Source: Thermoplasmata archaeon
Lineage (GTDB): Archaea; Thermoplasmatota; Thermoplasmata; RBG-16-68-12; JAJISG01
Length of the DNA: 64,000 nucleotides
NCBI GenBank assembly: GCA_046758325.1
Contig: JBHHZZ010000005.1
Location: forward strand, 150 to 64,149
Direction of reading: 5' to 3'
This document shows, piece after piece, positions 1,514 through 52,093 of this stretch; within the stretch, counting starts at the first letter, position 1; every line of letters starts with the position of its first letter. The notes under the pieces are model-generated. The model was not told the DNA's origin and made no database searches. It was given only the letters and a program-made list of their open reading frames with translations. The translations under genes were made by a program, and so were the position numbers.

Positions 1514-3163
1514 ATGAAAGCGGCGGACCTGTTCGTCAGATGCCTCGAAGAAGAGGGGGTCGAGTACGTCTTCGCCCTTCCTGGCGAGGAGAACCTGCAT
1601 CTTCTGGAAAGCCTTCGAACCTCGAACATCAAGGTGATCGTCAACCGCCATGAGCAGTGCTCTGCCTTCATGGCCGCCACGTATGGAAGACTCACCGGCA
1701 AGGTGGGCGTCTGCCTGGCAACCCTGGGACCCGGGGCGACCAATCTGGTGACGGGGGTTGCCTACGCCCAGCTCGGCGGGATGCCCCTCCTGGCGATTAC
1801 CGGGCAGAAGGGGATTCGCGAGAATTGGCAGGCCGATTTCCAGGTGGTGGAGGTTGTCCATATGATGGAGCCCATCACCAAACGGACCATCCAGATTCGG
1901 AGCCCCGAGAGCATCCCTAAGGAGGTTCGAGAGTCCTTCAAAGAGGCTACCACAGAAAGGCAGGGGGCCTGCCACATAGAGCTTCCGGAGGACATCGCTG
2001 TGGAAAGGGTGGAGGAGGTTTTTCAGCCCCAGAAAGCCATCCGCATTCGACGACCGGCGCCGAACACGGAAGCCATCAAGCTGGCAGCTGAGTCGATCAG
2101 GACAGCCAAGGATCCGGTCATCATCGTCTCAAGCAGGGCACAGAGACGCAGTGTCCGAGAGAGTCTCAGGAGTCTCTGTGACCAGACCAACCTCTATGTC
2201 ATCCACACCCAGCTTGGGAAGGGGGCGCTGGGAGACGACCACAGGAACTCCCTCTACTCCTTCGGAATTCACAAGCACGACTACGTAAACTGTGTTGTTG
2301 ACAGGGCCGACCTGATCATAACCATCGGGTATTCCACGGTGGAGTATCCGCCGAGCGTGTGGAATCACGACCTGGACAAGAGGATTCTTCATATCGATTT
2401 CGCTCCGGCATACCACGACATCTACTATTTCCCAAGCTGCGAACTGATCGGGGATATCGCCACCTCCCTGGATCTGTTGGCCAGGGAGCTGGAATCCTAT
2501 CACTATGACGGCAGCTACTGCAAGAGAATCAAGGGCCAGCTCGACGAGATGCTGTTTGTTGAAGGAGCTGATGATGAGGCCTTCCCGCCCCGGCCGAGGA
2601 GGATTGTGGCTGACTGCCAGAAGGTGCTGGATCCTCAGGATATCCTCTGCCTGGATAACGGCATCTACAAGTTGTGGTTCTCCCGACACTTCAAGACCTT
2701 TCACGTCGGGACGTTCCTTCTCGATAACACCCTGGCCTCCATGGGGGCTGGGCTTCCCAGCGCCATGGCCGCCAGGCTGGTTCACCCGGAAAGGCGGGTT
2801 CTAGCCGTATGCGGCGACGGCGGCTTCATGATGAATTCCCAGGAATTGGAGACGGCGGTACGGCTGGGTCTCAACATTGTCGTGCTGATCCTCAACGATG
2901 ACGCCTATGGCTTCATCAAATGGAAGCAGTCAACCTACAAGTATCCCAGTTTCGCCCTGGACTTCGGGAATCCCGATTTCGTGAAGTACGCCAGAAGCTA
3001 CGGAGCCGTGGGGTTCCGGGTGAAGTCCACCGAAGAACTCGTCCCCCTGCTGGAGAAGGCCTTTGCCCACGGCGGTCCGGTCATCGTGGAGTGTCCCATC
3101 GACTATTCCGAGAACTCCAAAGTCTGGGGCGAGGATCTCGACGGGATCGTCTGCCCCATGTAG
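1514..3163 (+). CDS. thiamine-diphosphate-dependent enzyme, acetolactate-synthase large-subunit family
   Basis: 549-aa ORF with ThDP-binding motif 'GDGGFMMN...NDDAYG' and an N-terminal Pyr-domain-like region. Substrate unknown. Confidence 0.8.
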   Translation: MKAADLFVRCLEEEGVEYVFALPGEENLHLLESLRTSNIKVIVNRHEQCSAFMAATYGRLTGKVGVCLATLGPGATNLVTGVAYAQLGGMPLLAITGQKGIRENWQADFQVVEVVHMMEPITKRTIQIRSPESIPKEVRESFKEATTERQGACHIELPEDIAVERVEEVFQPQKAIRIRRPAPNTEAIKLAAESIRTAKDPVIIVSSRAQRRSVRESLRSLCDQTNLYVIHTQLGKGALGDDHRNSLYSFGIHKHDYVNCVVDRADLIITIGYSTVEYPPSVWNHDLDKRILHIDFAPAYHDIYYFPSCELIGDIATSLDLLARELESYHYDGSYCKRIKGQLDEMLFVEGADDEAFPPRPRRIVADCQKVLDPQDILCLDNGIYKLWFSRHFKTFHVGTFLLDNTLASMGAGLPSAMAARLVHPERRVLAVCGDGGFMMNSQELETAVRLGLNIVVLILNDDAYGFIKWKQSTYKYPSFALDFGNPDFVKYARSYGAVGFRVKSTEELVPLLEKAFAHGGPVIVECPIDYSENSKVWGEDLDGIVCPM

Positions 3164-8271: not shown

Positions 8272-8512
8272 CCTCTCACTGAGGACCTCCGCTGTTCCTA
8301 TTTGACATGGGGAGATTGTGCGGAGGATTATCCGAAGCAAGAATCGGCTTGGCCAATGAAACGGGTTTTCTGTACGTCGAGGCTGACTGCTCTGATGGAG
8401 AACACCCGGCGTGACCCGAGTTGGTCGCCAGCGGAGTTTGATAGGGATATGTCAGGCACGAAAACCTGACGGTTGGCTTGAATGTGTTAGGGGTAAGACC
8501 ATATTCTCCCCC

Positions 8513-8911
8513 TCATTCCTGTAGGAACTTTCCTTCCATTTCCCGTAGCATTGAATTGCAGAAGGTGAGCATTCTCTCCCTCTCTTCTCTGCTCATCGGG
8601 GTGAGACAATTCTCCATCATTCGCGGCATCATCTCGTGCATGGTCTCCATCATATCCTCTGAGCCCATCGATTCCATGCACCCCTTCATCATTTCTGGCA
8701 TCATTTGGGACATCATTTCCTTCATCTGCTGGGGATCCCCGCCACCCGTTGACTCCATCATCTTGGGCATCATCCCCATCATAATCTTCTGCATCTCCTG
8801 TGGCGTCATATCTGTGAAGAACTTCTCCATCATGCTATCCATCATTTCCATCTTCTCTTCCTTGCCCATCCTCCTCATCATCCGATCCATCATGCGCTCT
8901 TTGAACGACAT
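8513..8911 (-). CDS. methionine-rich protein (~30% Met, amphipathic MMxxMM periodicity)
   Basis: ORF 8513..9022. Start placed at internal ATG 8911, preceded by GGTGATGAG. Translation is MSFKERMMDRMMRRMGKEEKMEMMDSMM...; the antisense frame is also open (see findings). Confidence 0.55.
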   Translation of the reverse strand: MSFKERMMDRMMRRMGKEEKMEMMDSMMEKFFTDMTPQEMQKIMMGMMPKMMESTGGGDPQQMKEMMSQMMPEMMKGCMESMGSEDMMETMHEMMPRMMENCLTPMSREERERMLTFCNSMLREMEGKFLQE

Positions 8912-9079
8912 CTCATCACCTTGTAGGGAGGGGTCTGAAGGCTTCTTAACCCTTTCTGCGCAACCATGTGCCGGGCCATATGCAAGATCTGGGTGACAGG
9001 GTGGCGGCCAACGGAAGTTCATCCAATGTTCAAATAGTAAGTCATGGCGCCGGCTTCCGTGATACTCTCAAAGCAAAAG

Positions 9080-9260: not shown

Positions 9261-9569
9261 ATGGCGAAGAAATCGAACGAAAGCTCCCCCATGGCGGAGT
9301 TGAGGAAGCTCCTCTCGAATCAGGGCTATGCACTGCATCTGGCAACCGAGAGGAAGGGCGATGTGCTCACAGCCAGGGTGGAGATAGTGGATGTGAAGGC
9401 CGAGCGAACCTTCCTCAAGCTCATCGCCTCCGGCCGCCTGGAGGATGTCGATTTTACCGTGGGACTGGACGTGGCTGAAGAGCCTTTCTGGGATGTCGTC
9501 CTGAAGCTAGTCAACCTGCTGGATTCCGTCAAGAATCTCGTGCCCATCCGGATGACCACGTCCCGCTGA
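9261..9569 (+). CDS. hypothetical protein
   Basis: 102-aa ORF, no recognisable motif. Confidence 0.35.
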   Translation: MAKKSNESSPMAELRKLLSNQGYALHLATERKGDVLTARVEIVDVKAERTFLKLIASGRLEDVDFTVGLDVAEEPFWDVVLKLVNLLDSVKNLVPIRMTTSR

Positions 9570-9614
9570 ACGGCACCTATTTATACGGAAGATGCGATTT
9601 CCATCGTTACTGGG

Positions 9615-9842
9615 ATGGAACCTTCTAACGTGCTCATTGTCCTCGAAGAGTGGGAGAAATGGCGCTCTCGTAAGACGCGGCTAGAGGGGGAGCTGGAGAA
9701 CCTTCGGAAGAAGCGGGAGGCCCTGCGGGCCGACCTCGAGAGCGTCAAGAAGGAACTGGCCAGCATCGAAGACGTCCTTTTCGAACATGGGGAGAGGCCC
9801 ATAGATGCCTATACCCTACCGCCCTTCCACCTGGGGAAGTAG
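9615..9842 (+). CDS. small coiled-coil protein (75 aa), paralog A
   Basis: EEWEKWRSRKTRLEGELENLRKK... heptad-like. Stop TAG at 9840-9842 lies one base before the next gene's ATG. Confidence 0.45.
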   Translation: MEPSNVLIVLEEWEKWRSRKTRLEGELENLRKKREALRADLESVKKELASIEDVLFEHGERPIDAYTLPPFHLGK

Positions 9843-9843
9843 T

Positions 9844-10071
9844 ATGGGGAGGACCGATACCATCTGGGAGGAACACAGGAAGTGGCTCCATCGGAAGCGG
9901 GAGCTGGAGGAAGCCCTGGAGGATGTGGACAGGGAGGAGTCCTTCCTTCTGGAGGAGCTGGATAGGGTGGAAGAGCAGGTAGCCTACTACGGCTCCCTGA
10001 CGAAGGAGATGAAGAAGACGTTGGATCCTCCCAAGCTGGCTCATCTTCTGCGCTCCTGGAGGAAGGTCTGA
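9844..10071 (+). CDS. small coiled-coil protein (75 aa), paralog B
   Basis: WEEHRKWLHRKRELEEALEDV..., same length as paralog A with a similar N-terminal motif. Start taken at internal ATG 9844. Confidence 0.45.
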   Translation: MGRTDTIWEEHRKWLHRKRELEEALEDVDREESFLLEELDRVEEQVAYYGSLTKEMKKTLDPPKLAHLLRSWRKV

Positions 10072-24530: not shown

Positions 24531-26954
24531 CTACCCCTCCAGGATGTGCCCCGTTTGAAGCACCTTCCGCCTCACTTCCTCCGCCACGGCCTGGTTCCGC
24601 AGGACCACCTCTATGACCTTATCGTTCGCATCGCCAGAGACTTTCTCCACACCAGGCACCTTTCCGACGGCGTCCTTGAGGGTCGTCAGGCAGCCGCTAC
24701 AGTGCATGGAGGGGACCTTGAGTCGCAAGACCTCTGCACGGGCCCCGGCCCGGCGCCCCGGCAGCACTCTCCCAAGGAAGGAGTTCAAGAGGACGGTTGT
24801 AACGCTGGCTCCCATGGCGATCATAGCCCAGACAGGATGCACGAGGCCCGTGGCTGCTGCGGGCACCCCTATACCGTTGAACAGGAAGGCCAGGGTCACG
24901 TTCTGCCTCGTCTTGTTGTAGGCCGCCTTGGCTACCTTGAAGGCATCCACCACGGCTCGCAGCCTGTCTCCAATGATGATCACGTCGGAGGACTCTATGG
25001 CGATGTCTGTACCGGCGCCTAAGGCCATACCCACGTCCGCCTGCATCAGGGCGGGGGCATCGTTGATGCCGTCGCCGACCATGACGACCCTATGGCCCCT
25101 CTCCTGCAGCTCCTGAAGGATCTCGGCCTTCTCCTGCGGGAGCACGCCGGCGTAGACCTTGCCAATGCCCACTCGCTCCGCCATGGCGACCGCCGTCCTC
25201 TCGTTATCCCCCGTTATCATGATGGGCTCCAGGCCCATTCTCCTCATGTCCTCCACGGTATTCGCCGCGTCCTCCTTCGGGAGGTCGGCAAGGGCGATGA
25301 GACCAAGCGGATGACCGTCAAGGGCCACGGCCACGACGGTCTTGGCCTCCCCTTGCAGCCTCTTTGCATCCTCCGCCAAGGACGATAGGTCGACGCCTGA
25401 GGAGATCAGGAACTCTGGCTTGCCTACCAGTGCCCTCTTCATCTGCCACAAGCCCTCCACCCCTTCACCTGGAACCGCCTTGAAATCCACCACGTCGGGG
25501 ATCTCCAGACCCTCCTCGCGGGCCCTCTCCACGATTGCCTTTCCCAGAGGGTGTTCTGAGCGGGCCTCGCATGCGGCGGCGACCTCCAGCACCCTCGCAT
25601 CGACGACGCCTTCCGCTGGGGCGAGTTCCACAACCTGAGGCCTCCCCAACGTGATGGTCCCCGTCTTGTCCAAGATCGTCACATCCGCCCTGGTGAGGGT
25701 CTGGAAAGCCTCCGAGGATCTCACGAGGATGCCCCGCTCCGCTGCCAGTCCACTTCCTCGGATCATGGCGAGGGGCGTGGCCATGCCCAAGGCACAAGGG
25801 TAGCCCATCACGAGGACTGCTAGCATGGCGAAAATGGCCCGGACGTAGTCAGCCTCGCCAAACAGAAGGGCCAAGCCGACGGTCCAGATGAGGAGGCTGG
25901 CGCCCCCCATGAGGACGACCCAGGGGACGTAGTATTTGAGGACCCTGTCCACCAGCTGGAGGATGCCCGGCTTGAGGGCCCTGGCCTCTTCCACGTATCG
26001 GGCCACCCGTCGGAGAAATGAATCCTCTCCCACTCTGGTCACCTTGATGAGGAGAGTACCTTCCTGGTTGAGGGAGCCGCCAATCACCTCTTCCCCCGGC
26101 CGGACCTCCACCGGGAGGGACTCCCCCGTAACGATGGACTGATCCACGCTGGAAGCTCCCTCCATAACGACGCCGTCAACCGGCAGCTGTTGCCCCGGGA
26201 CCACCCTCACGAGCTCACCCGCCTCCACCTCCTCCACAGCTACCTCCACCTCCCTTCCATCTCTCAGGACCGTGGCGGTCTGAGGCTGCAGGTCCAAGAG
26301 CCTCCTCACCGCGCGGGAGGACTGGGTCCTCACGTGGAGGGAGGCGTATCCAGAGGCCACGTGATACGTGGTAATGAAGACGGAGACGGCCAGAAAATCC
26401 AGGACGGGGAACCGCTGGTAGACGAATCCCAGGAGCCCTCCAGCGAGGCCAGCAAAGGCGCCGAACTCCAACAGGTTGTGCTGGTTGAGGATGCCTCTGC
26501 GGAGGGAGTGCCAGGCCATCTGCTTGATGTGCCATCCGGGACCGAACATGGTGTAGAGGGCCAGGGCTAGCATGGCCCATGGGTACCAGACCTGCCTCAC
26601 GCCCAGCCACATGCTCATCATCAGGGTGGCGGCAGCGATGGTGGCGGCAGTCGCAGAGATCAGCTTTCTTCTCGCTTCCCCCAGCTCCGCCGCCTCCTCC
26701 TCGAAGGTCCTCACCTTGGCGGGGTCCCGAATCACATATCCCAGCTCCGTCAGCCTCCTCCTGACGTCGTCGGCCTCCACAAGTTCAGGGAGGTACTCCA
26801 CCAGCGCCTCCTCGTGGGAGAGGCTGACGGAGACCCTCCGTATGCCGGGCAGTCTGACCAGAGCTTTCCGAATGGTCTCAGCGCAGAAGGAGCAGGACAT
26901 GCCACCGATCTTCAGGTGTAGCTTCTCCGCAGCAGCCAACGCTATAGCCCCCAC
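24531..26954 (-). CDS. copA: heavy-metal (Cu+-type) P1B-type ATPase with N- and C-terminal HMA domains
   Basis: N-terminal HMA 'GMSCSFC', DKTGT, 'GDGINDAP', C-terminal HMA 'MHCSGC'. The TM6 motif reads YPC, not CPC. GTG start. Confidence 0.9.
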   Translation of the reverse strand: MGAIALAAAEKLHLKIGGMSCSFCAETIRKALVRLPGIRRVSVSLSHEEALVEYLPELVEADDVRRRLTELGYVIRDPAKVRTFEEEAAELGEARRKLISATAATIAAATLMMSMWLGVRQVWYPWAMLALALYTMFGPGWHIKQMAWHSLRRGILNQHNLLEFGAFAGLAGGLLGFVYQRFPVLDFLAVSVFITTYHVASGYASLHVRTQSSRAVRRLLDLQPQTATVLRDGREVEVAVEEVEAGELVRVVPGQQLPVDGVVMEGASSVDQSIVTGESLPVEVRPGEEVIGGSLNQEGTLLIKVTRVGEDSFLRRVARYVEEARALKPGILQLVDRVLKYYVPWVVLMGGASLLIWTVGLALLFGEADYVRAIFAMLAVLVMGYPCALGMATPLAMIRGSGLAAERGILVRSSEAFQTLTRADVTILDKTGTITLGRPQVVELAPAEGVVDARVLEVAAACEARSEHPLGKAIVERAREEGLEIPDVVDFKAVPGEGVEGLWQMKRALVGKPEFLISSGVDLSSLAEDAKRLQGEAKTVVAVALDGHPLGLIALADLPKEDAANTVEDMRRMGLEPIMITGDNERTAVAMAERVGIGKVYAGVLPQEKAEILQELQERGHRVVMVGDGINDAPALMQADVGMALGAGTDIAIESSDVIIIGDRLRAVVDAFKVAKAAYNKTRQNVTLAFLFNGIGVPAAATGLVHPVWAMIAMGASVTTVLLNSFLGRVLPGRRAGARAEVLRLKVPSMHCSGCLTTLKDAVGKVPGVEKVSGDANDKVIEVVLRNQAVAEEVRRKVLQTGHILEG

Positions 26955-47400: not shown

Positions 47401-48333
47401 CTACCCATCCTCTGAGGTCTCTGAGCCAAGACCACGTGCCACCGGCTCCACGTGAACTGTCGCTTCTGCCTTCAGCTCCTCCCTGATCTTGATTTCCACT
47501 CCAGACGCTATCTCGTGGGCCTCTTCGATGCTGAGGTGGTTGTCTACATCTACCGTGAGGGCCACAGCCTTCCGGAAGCCGTAGTCATGGACGGAGATAT
47601 CGTGTACCTTCCTCACTCCTGGGAGGGTCGAGGCAAGGTCCATGATATGCCTGACGAAGACCTCGCTGGGAGCCCTGCCCAGTAGACGGTCGCCAGCCGA
47701 GCGTAGCAGTCTTCCGCCGGTGTAGAGGATGATCCCGGACACGATGATACCGAAAAGGGGGTCCAGGATTCGCAGGGATCCACTCCAGCTCGTCATGTAT
47801 ATGGCCAAGGCGATGGCCCCCGTGAGCATTGCGTCATACCTGTGATTCCATGCGTCCCCCCGGACGACGTCGCTGTCTATCCGCTCGGCGATAGCGAAGG
47901 AGAAGCGGGCGAGGATCTCCTTGACCCCTGCCAGAACGCCTAGGATGAGGGCGAAGACCAGGCTACCGCGAATCGAGGGGTTGAAGAGTTCCCTCACGGA
48001 CTGCAGCAGGAGAAGAACGGCCACGAAGACCAGGAAGGCCGCCACCAGGAGGGCAGCCACATCCTCCAGCCTCCCGTGTCCGAAAGGATGCTCCCGATCC
48101 GCCTCTTTTCCGGCGTATCTGAATGCGAGGAGGATCATGAGGGATATGCCCACGTCTCCCAGCTGGTTGAAGGCGTCCGTGAGGACAGCCACGCTCCCCA
48201 GGAAGGAGGCAATGAAGATCTTTGAGGAAAACAGGGACATGTTGACCACAATGGCCACGGTGGACTGGAAATACCCATACCGGGCCCTCGTCCTAGGGTC
48301 CGACGCGTCGCCCAGATCAGGTAGGAAACCCAC
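47401..48333 (-). CDS. cation diffusion facilitator (CDF) family transporter
   Basis: 6 TM plus a cytoplasmic C-terminal domain. 'HPFGHGR' and 'DAWNHRYD' metal-site motifs. Confidence 0.8.
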   Translation of the reverse strand: MGFLPDLGDASDPRTRARYGYFQSTVAIVVNMSLFSSKIFIASFLGSVAVLTDAFNQLGDVGISLMILLAFRYAGKEADREHPFGHGRLEDVAALLVAAFLVFVAVLLLLQSVRELFNPSIRGSLVFALILGVLAGVKEILARFSFAIAERIDSDVVRGDAWNHRYDAMLTGAIALAIYMTSWSGSLRILDPLFGIIVSGIILYTGGRLLRSAGDRLLGRAPSEVFVRHIMDLASTLPGVRKVHDISVHDYGFRKAVALTVDVDNHLSIEEAHEIASGVEIKIREELKAEATVHVEPVARGLGSETSEDG

Positions 48334-51808: not shown

Positions 51809-52007
51809 CTCATCCTCTTAGGAGGTTTCTCTGGGCACCCTATTTGATTGTTTTTAAGTCGTAATCAAAATCGGGAATCATTTTTCCTGGCTTTTTGACG
51901 TCTTCTAGGGGTACAGAGGTACCCCATCCCCGAAACGTGGATACCTATCGGAGCTGGATTCAAGGTTGGGCGGACAGGTTGACGAAGGCGAGGCCAAGGA
52001 GCACGAG

Positions 52008-52093
52008 AGCCGCCGAAGGGATTCGAACCCTTGACCTACGGTTCTCCCGCTGCGTTACAAGACCGTCGCTCTAACCAGCTGAGCTACGGCGGC
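52008..52093 (-). tRNA. tRNA-Thr (anticodon UGU) with a putative 12-nt intron next to the anticodon loop
   Basis: Hand fold: acceptor GCCGCCG/CGGCGGC, D-arm GCTC..GAGC, anticodon stem ACGGT/ACCGT with 12 extra nt (CGCAGCGGGAGA) after loop CTTGTAA, T-arm AAGGG-TTCGAAT-CCCTT, discriminator U. Confidence 0.65.

Follow-up and report, generated by a model that had tools for sequence, protein, structure and literature searches.

A stretch of 64,000 nucleotides from a Thermoplasmata archaeon (contig JBHHZZ010000005.1 of assembly GCA_046758325.1), referred to below as the window, contains a short ATG-rich tract that can be read as protein on either strand. On the minus strand, positions 8513-8911 encode 132 amino acids, 39 of them methionine (29.5%); on the plus strand an open reading frame (ORF) at 8478-8996, open for 172 codons in the window, encodes an Ile/Ser-rich product that mirrors the ATG repeats, as the initial annotation of the locus had pointed out. 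The locus therefore raises the question of which frame is a gene, and of what use a cell might make of a protein so rich in methionine. Comparative data indicate that the Met-rich ORF is almost certainly a real protein-coding gene, and its product belongs to a rare, new and nameless family common to anaerobic archaea and bacteria. The role that we rank first, tentatively, is that of a buffer for soft metals or metalloids.

The assignment of 8513-8911 (minus strand) as a coding sequence draws on translation, composition, homologues and a codon-position test. The ORF starts with ATG at 8911-8909 and stops with TGA at 8515-8513, and the protein opens with MSFKERMMDRMM and closes with EGKFLQE. Translation verifies the extreme methionine content and the three cysteines proposed earlier (C78, C102 and C118); there are in addition 20 Glu, 9 Lys, 9 Arg and a single His, so that D, E, K and R account for 32.6% of the residues and the net charge is -7. 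Other hydrophobic residues are scarce (no Val or Ala, one Ile, four Leu and five Phe), and 13 MM pairs are present. By comparison, the median Met content of the 118 ORFs of at least 100 aa in the window is 2.4%, and the second-richest reaches 8.9%. The RBS-like element noticed at the start can be read from the sequence as a Shine-Dalgarno-like GGTGAT at 8915-8920 (minus strand), three bases before the ATG, and may serve in ribosome binding. A longer in-frame start at 9022 (169 aa) was rejected, since homologues such as P0025 as well as independent gene calls begin at the equivalent of 8911; an identical 132-aa product has been called independently in two other assemblies, and the proposed start and C-terminus thus both stand. 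The same gene is present in samples SRR29324601/02. No signal peptide was found, the N-terminus MSFKERMMDRMMRRMGKEEK being charged and without a hydrophobic h-region, and the protein is small, cytoplasmic, acidic and all-alpha.

Choosing between the two frames requires some care. They have their third codon positions in common while positions 1 and 2 are swapped, and it had been supposed that for this reason they could not be told apart by composition. The sharing is real, but the two are separable in spite of it: Met is encoded by ATG alone and its mirror image, Ile, by three codons, and comparative data decide clearly for the Met frame. We used the asymmetry between codon positions 1 and 2 together with the behaviour of the third base of ATG, rather than a classical dN/dS by frame, which shared third positions render uninformative. 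In a codon alignment of 34 non-redundant homologous genes, nucleotide diversity in columns other than Met is 0.42, 0.33 and 0.60 at codon positions 1, 2 and 3. This order (2<1<3) is what a coding sequence normally shows when read in the Met frame; the antisense reading would make position 2 more variable than position 1. Within the 24 Met-majority columns third-position diversity is only 0.13, with ATG at 703 of 776 codons and ATH at 22. Selection on the antisense Ile frame would leave the third base of these codons free to drift, ATC, ATT and ATA being interchangeable; no such drift is seen, and the strand is settled in favour of the Met frame.

The suggestion that there is no minus-strand gene at all, the ATG-rich tract being non-coding or the Ile/Ser ORF at 8478-8996 being the true gene, has in its favour the 172 open codons on the plus strand. 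Genetic-code reasoning shows that such a frame stays open almost automatically, because the sense strand has no Tyr codons and few His or Gln codons. Moreover, of the 59 unique family genes that were examined with their DNA, 36 have one or more internal stops in this frame, its translation has no family match in Pfam or NCBIfam, and the Met frame alone is compatible with the 2<1<3 pattern and with the frozen third base of ATG. Read as a plus-strand gene the locus is already contradicted by the comparative data, and we regard the suggestion as a whole as highly improbable; the plus-strand ORF is best listed as a mirror artefact. The case may also serve as a worked example of how a real ORF can be told from an antisense mirror that shares its third positions, by means of a codon without synonyms.

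A search with the Met-frame protein, as the initial annotation had recommended along with a comparison of conservation by frame, recovered 29 homologues of 44-82% identity. A profile search (HMMER, 1.84 billion representatives) extended these to 155 clusters at E<=1e-3, 66 of them at E<=1e-10, with the best E-values down to 1e-28. The hosts, known from metagenome-assembled genomes (MAGs), are Methanofastidiosia, Bathyarchaeota, Thermoplasmatota, Geothermarchaeales, Chloroflexota and Neomarinimicrobiota, and many further members come from metagenomes. Neither the window protein, nor ten variant relatives, nor 128 family members match any Pfam or NCBIfam model above threshold, and no published description was found in the literature on Met-rich archaeal proteins or Met-rich ArsM partners. 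Source annotations read 'hypothetical protein', apart from one evidently wrong 'deoxyhypusine synthase'. We are thus dealing with a conserved cytoplasmic family of archaea and bacteria from anoxic sediments that has a clear sequence signature and as yet no name, Pfam model or solved structure.

Members of the family are composed of a variable number of Met-rich helical repeats of about 22 residues followed by a conserved C-terminal hairpin of about 45 residues. The hairpin, which is the conserved core, corresponds to residues 87-130 of the window protein (8522-8653, minus strand), where the sequence takes the form MxxxMHEMMPxMMExC[LF]xxMxxExRxxMLxxCRxMLxE[MI]ExK[FY] and matches the family motif MxxxM-P-x-M-M-[ED]-x-C-[FL]-x-x-M-x-x-E-x-R-x-x-M-L-x-x-C-R-x-M-L-x-E-[MI]-E-x-K-[FY]. 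Column conservation, computed over 128 sequences, is highest at P96 (96%) and R111 (90%), followed by C102, L122 and E126 (each 88%), M106 (86%), M98 and M99 (85%), C118 (83%), M95 (82%), M114 (80%) and M91 (79%). At least eight core positions are therefore Met in 79-86% of the sequences, instead of alternating with Leu, Ile or Val, and across the family Met makes up a median of 54% of all hydrophobic residues. Such specific retention argues that the thioether chemistry of the residue may itself be under selection, beyond hydrophobicity alone. Of the two core cysteines, 92 sequences have the pair, 35 have a single one and one sequence has none, and they are lost independently of one another (Fisher p=0.47), with Tyr, Trp, Phe or Leu substituting at C118.

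Upstream of the core at least one MMxxMMPxMM repeat is typical of the family, and the window protein has three clear ones within residues 36-106 in addition to two degenerate N-terminal units. The three tandem repeats, of 22-24 residues or so each (residues 36-58, 59-82 and 83-106; 8594-8806, minus strand), are of the type [DS]PExMxxMMxxMMPxMMxxC/x and were delimited by repeat dissection, agreeing with predicted helices 37-54, 60-80 and 84-103. They are preceded by the Met-rich N-terminal segment (residues 1-35, MSFKERMMDRMMRRM / GKEEKMEMMDSMMEKFFTDM; 8807-8911, minus strand), with predicted helices 3-14 and 17-33; the same N-terminus is found in P0025, P0026 and P0004. Tandem repetition at the DNA level is confined to a single weak array of three 12-nt units, so the Met repeats would seem to be old and to exist at the protein level. 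Repeat number ranges from none or one in the membrane-anchored forms (6-13% Met) through the three of the window protein to about ten in 278-aa members (L021:2526-3362 and L023:4523-5359; 28% Met; unit MMPxMMxNMFKxLxPxDxQEIMM), and this scaling suggests an action that is stoichiometric and not catalytic.

The family module is also found in other settings. In P0054 (456 aa) it follows, as a C-terminal fusion, a CPBP/Rce1-like intramembrane protease domain (PF02517, E=9e-14). Met-repeat proteins with other, Cys-cluster tails include P0029, P0151, P0160, L058:1002-1397, P0130 and P0025/P0026/P0148, the tails being of the types F[KE]PWEFCPCRxxCE, ...CCSGM...ACCGC and ...CCAQMG, and the Met-repeat module thus appears to have been combined with several different Cys-bearing tails. 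P0025 (L012:6001-8123) has the N-terminal half of the window protein and a different C-terminus (…CAQMGFDL…); it lies near a 292-aa GNAT gene, with an HTH_10 regulator gene between them, and the GNAT of the window is of 290 aa, which suggests partial synteny plus module swapping. In a Neomarinimicrobiota MAG (L005:5938-6171) the family gene is split into a 27-aa Met-rich ORF and a core module in another frame; this suggests a frameshift, a pseudogene or an assembly error, and P0163 is an intact relative.

Structure prediction is in keeping with a helical protein. An AlphaFold2 model from 18 sequences was unconvincing (predicted local distance difference test score, pLDDT, 70; predicted template modelling score, pTM, 0.31), whereas with 128 sequences the scores rose to 83.8 and 0.51. 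The predicted helices are six in number (3-14, 17-33, 37-54, 60-80, 84-103 and 108-130), and the C-terminal hairpin is the part of highest confidence (pLDDT 91-96). It had been proposed that the spacing of the Met residues would place all of them on one face of the helix. In each of the six helices the mean directions of Met and charged side chains do lie about 180 degrees apart; the resultant of the Met face is, however, only 0.44-0.67 per helix (0.96 in the last), and p<0.05 against random placement is reached in three of the six, so that in the model the face is real but broad. With 39 Met as against five Leu plus Ile and five Phe, methionine is predicted to supply nearly the whole of the hydrophobic face or core. 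Sequence-profile searches found no relatives in the PDB at E<0.1 and no MgtE entry. The sole recurrent Pfam similarity, in the absence of any other domain, is to the helical repeat MgtE_N (PF03448), which together with ARM-HEAT-like alpha-solenoid repeats counts among the nearest known systems; the window protein scores 19.9 bits (E=1.1e-3) against a gathering threshold of 25.9; such matches occur at E<=0.01 in 20 of the 128 members (best 3.3e-5). Membership of MgtE was rejected, as the score is below threshold and there are no CBS or membrane domains. The modelled fold would thus be a short alpha-helical repeat in which Met takes the usual role of Leu, with no specific relative detected.

Hints of function come from the neighbourhoods of relatives, for which 298 neighbour ORFs were clustered across related loci and a Pfam census made of 145 distinct neighbours no more than two genes away. 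The commonest domains among the 145 are methyltransferases (7), HTH_10 regulators (5), ArsR-type HTH_5 (4), FMN_red (4) and QRPTase (4, lineage-specific). Methyltransferases that score 324-373 bits with NF008823 (arsenite methyltransferase; cutoff 263) are encoded in L002, L038, L039 and L051, and the methyltransferase of L052 falls in the same cluster. In these five loci arsM is never more than two genes from the family gene; the loci come from four lineages that share at most 65% identity, each with its own gene order. In L038 the family gene (2758-3120) begins 2 nt after arsM, in the same orientation. On our assumption of one arsM per 1,500-3,000 genes, an approximate Poisson calculation puts the probability of this adjacency at about 1e-6. 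Regulators of the ArsR/SmtB type adjoin family genes in L063 and in four loci of a single lineage (L033, L035, L037 and L047); loci of this kind also carry DsrE-like or OsmC-like genes and, in L033 and L037, a second Met-rich paralogue.

Genes of sulfur and thiol metabolism adjoin the membrane-anchored members: P0127 is followed after 20 nt by a gene for a type III sulfide:quinone reductase (SQR), P0136 is 114 nt upstream of a 3-mercaptopyruvate sulfurtransferase/rhodanese gene (L075), and P0155 has a YgaP-like membrane gene on one side and an AhpD-like peroxidase-related gene on the other. Taken together the neighbourhoods indicate modules for arsenic methylation, sulfur and thiol stress, and not copper in particular. 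The initial annotation had remarked that a Cu-ATPase and a CDF transporter are encoded in the window without being adjacent, and this is so: they are at 24531-26954 and 47401-48333, some 16 (15.6) and 38 kb from the Met-rich gene. An association with copper homeostasis was considered and set aside, as no DKTGT-type ATPase occurs among the 298 neighbour ORFs, and no copper genes are nearby in about 55 related loci. Among the same loci the search for MsrA/B motifs gave a single instance, an MsrAB fusion about 3 kb away in L024.

We suggest that the protein could act as a stoichiometric, thioether-rich cytoplasmic buffer or carrier for soft thiophilic species, either metals of the Cu(I)/Ag(I) type or metalloids of the As(III) type. 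Its capacity would scale with repeat number, cysteines would contribute where present, and the gene would be expressed within metal(loid), sulfur or thiol stress modules in several lineages. A soft-thiophilic role is favoured because Met retention, repeat scaling, Cys-cluster tails and the arsenic-, sulfur- and peroxidase-type neighbours all converge on it. Several observations weigh on the other side, and keep this mechanism at about one chance in three, first among those considered and still short of an even chance. The known Cu(I)/Ag(I) sites made of Met alone are extracytoplasmic and cytoplasmic soft-metal sites are normally built of Cys, whereas the Met-rich protein has no signal peptide. 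No P-type ATPase, CopZ, Acr3, ArsC or ArsA gene was found near any family member; most related loci, the window included, are without metal, arsenic or sulfur neighbours. In the window no gene of these three kinds adjoins the Met-rich gene, and tblastn detected no ArsM, ArsR or HTH_10 in the 64 kb. An obligatory two-Cys site formed by C102 and C118 was rejected on account of their independent loss, and the Met residues may simply be buried.

The main rival is a redox role, in which sulfoxide formation would scavenge oxidants, as in MrpX with recycling by Msr, or would unfold the Met core as a signal. The composition is similar, with 29.5% Met and 32.6% charged residues here as compared with 20% and 44% in MrpX (PMC4436054); a core built of Met could be expected to be destabilized by oxidation; the variable repeat number would suit a stoichiometric sink; and some loci have oxidant-related neighbours, namely AhpD-like, OsmC-like and FMN-dependent quinone reductase genes and the distant MsrAB of L024. 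Yet there is neither a signal peptide nor an msr operon, the near-total lack of MsrA/B motifs across the loci being difficult to reconcile with recycling, and the hosts live as anaerobes in sediments or below the surface. Methionine is oxidized rapidly by hypochlorite and only very slowly by H2O2 (PMC4436054), and since fast oxidants such as hypochlorite are not expected in anaerobic habitats, a Met sink would probably be a poor defence against those that are. The arsM, SQR and rhodanese neighbours would also be left unexplained, and we consider a redox sink or switch unlikely. We give equal weight to the proposal, likewise a serious one, that a flexible Met surface binds a hydrophobic partner, in the manner of the SRP54 M domain or calmodulin, the partner being ArsM, SQR, a transcription factor or a hydrophobic sulfur species (polysulfide or S8), with the C-terminal hairpin as a docking or dimerization module and the cysteines as possible carriers of sulfane sulfur. 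The position of the gene in operons ahead of SQR and rhodanese would fit an adaptor or sulfur carrier; however, no one partner is kept across loci and the window has none, and variation from one to about ten repeats is unusual for a specific adaptor.

Far less probable than either is a Met or sulfur reserve, or a translational gauge of the supply of Met-tRNA or S-adenosylmethionine (SAM). The Met content is comparable to that of Met-rich seed storage proteins, and the adjacency of the SAM-consuming ArsM in four lineages could hint at an economy of Met and SAM. A conserved core of non-Met residues (P96, R111, E126 and the two Cys), ordered helices and low-Met membrane-anchored members would nevertheless not be expected of a reserve; there are no adjoining Met-biosynthesis genes, and no SAM or Met riboswitch or other Rfam element is present upstream, where a tRNA-Val was found and no riboswitch or leader. 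A broader formulation, that we advance as speculative and with somewhat less assurance than soft metal(loid) buffering itself, is that the family represents a new class of cytoplasmic protein with a near-all-Met hydrophobic core, spread by both descent and transfer, in which the thioethers of the core would be what functions, either as a high-capacity, repeat-scalable metal(loid) buffer or as a fold gated by Met oxidation or metal binding. On both versions the protein would be tied to modules for arsenic methylation and sulfide oxidation.

A Met content of about 30% is very rare among proteins, and the cases that have been characterized (MrpX, SilE/PcoE and the CueO inserts) act outside the cytoplasm. 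It had been suggested that the Met faces of the window protein resemble Cu(I)/Ag(I)-binding Mets motifs, SRP54 M-domain-like clamps and sacrificial antioxidant proteins, but membership of none of these groups is borne out, since the protein has no signal peptide, one His, no SRP54 domain and no adjoining copper or msr genes. SilE/PcoE-type proteins are small and helical when metal-bound, and have many His, multiple HxxM/MxxH motifs, a signal peptide and a place in a sil/pco locus; membership of that group was rejected on the single His and on the absence of a signal peptide and of adjoining sil, pco or cus genes. Copper storage proteins of the Csp1/Csp3 type are small, all-helical and either cytoplasmic or secreted, and store soft metal ions in large number within a helical assembly. 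The window protein is like them in being a small all-helical protein proposed to hold many such ions, and lacks the four-helix bundle with a Cys-lined core that defines them. Amphipathic helices with flexible Met on one face are likewise a feature of the SRP54/Ffh M domain and of calmodulin-type surfaces, from which the window protein differs in having no SRP_SPB or NG domain or EF-hands, a Met density several-fold higher, and the form of a stand-alone repeat protein; an SRP54/Ffh assignment was discarded, there being no SRP_SPB or NG match in Pfam even at E<=10 and a length of only 132 aa. Dense MxxM/MMxxMM arrays also occur in the Mets-motif Cu(I)/Ag(I) binders (the CueO Met-rich insert, CusF, CopC, PcoE/SilE and Ctr1; for CueO, PMC11494321), which are periplasmic or extracellular and encoded in cop, cus, pco or sil loci, in contrast to the cytoplasmic protein described here.

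A further likeness, one of composition and proposed use, is to MrpX, a periplasmic Met-rich peptide of Azospira suillum encoded in the yedYZ-mrpX operon (PMC4436054). Both are small, consist of little other than Met and charged residues, and have a proposed stoichiometric use of Met. MrpX, however, is made with a signal peptide, and its gene shares a transcript with that of the MsrP/YedYZ sulfoxide reductase, controlled by a sigma factor that senses reactive chlorine species (PMC4436054), whereas the window protein has no signal peptide or msr neighbour, has a conserved Cys-containing C-terminal module and is found in anaerobic hosts. Its resemblance to MrpX, SilE/PcoE, the CueO inserts and the SRP54 M domain is solely in the helix-borne Met arrays, and, while best regarded as of the general kind of Met-rich stoichiometric binders or scavengers, it is set apart in being cytoplasmic and repeat-built, with a conserved C-terminal module of its own. 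Should it bind soft metal(loid)s or have a redox-gated core, it would be a new component of the ways in which uncultured anaerobes respond to stress from metals, arsenic and sulfide, and would offer protein chemists a natural 'all-methionine core' fold; the arsM and SQR associations provide testable leads.

Two of the neighbouring genes in related loci deserve mention in their own right. The type III SQR gene beside a membrane-anchored member at L070:1154-2438 and the AhpD-like gene beside another at L066:939-1592 are each split by an in-frame stop, and the former finds its best NCBIfam match in the selenoprotein subtype NF049943; in both genes the stop is probably a TGA codon for selenocysteine. 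The second Met-rich paralogues, at L033:1950-2483 and L037:6426-6932, directly follow an ArsR gene and belong to a different family with no Pfam match, of which P0028, P0120, P0166, P0168 and P0174 are further relatives. They have in common N-terminal MMDKMM...MMPKMM repeats and an end of the form MMPxCLxxLLPKMSxxxRVDF...EQG...EKK.

The window itself gives no functional context for the Met-rich gene. Downstream lie a convergent GNAT acetyltransferase gene and then a cupin gene; upstream are a tRNA-Val(CAC) gene, 168 nt away on the same strand, small unknown ORFs, and genes for an MtnA-like isomerase, a glyoxalase-fold protein and Nop5. About 43 nt past the stop of the Met-rich gene an inverted repeat, GTCAGG-TTTTCGTG-CCTGAC (8451-8470, minus strand), could form a hairpin at the end of the transcript; it was not reported by the promoter and terminator scan, which employs sigma-70 and intrinsic-terminator models and is uninformative for an archaeon. 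Within the coding sequence a weak Rfam match to the C/D-box snoR118 (8599-8696, minus strand; 22.3 bits against a gathering threshold of 44, E=0.11) is judged to be due to chance. The small ORFs between tRNA-Val and the MtnA-like gene (9261-10071, plus strand) are three in number, of 102, 75 and 88 aa, the last two overlapping; all are charged and coiled-coil-like in appearance, and the 102-aa product has no Pfam match. Elsewhere in the window, at 52007-52093 (minus strand), ARAGORN calls a tRNA of 87 nt without assigning its type and gives it an anticodon of four bases, 'gtaa'; this may be an intron-containing archaeal tRNA.
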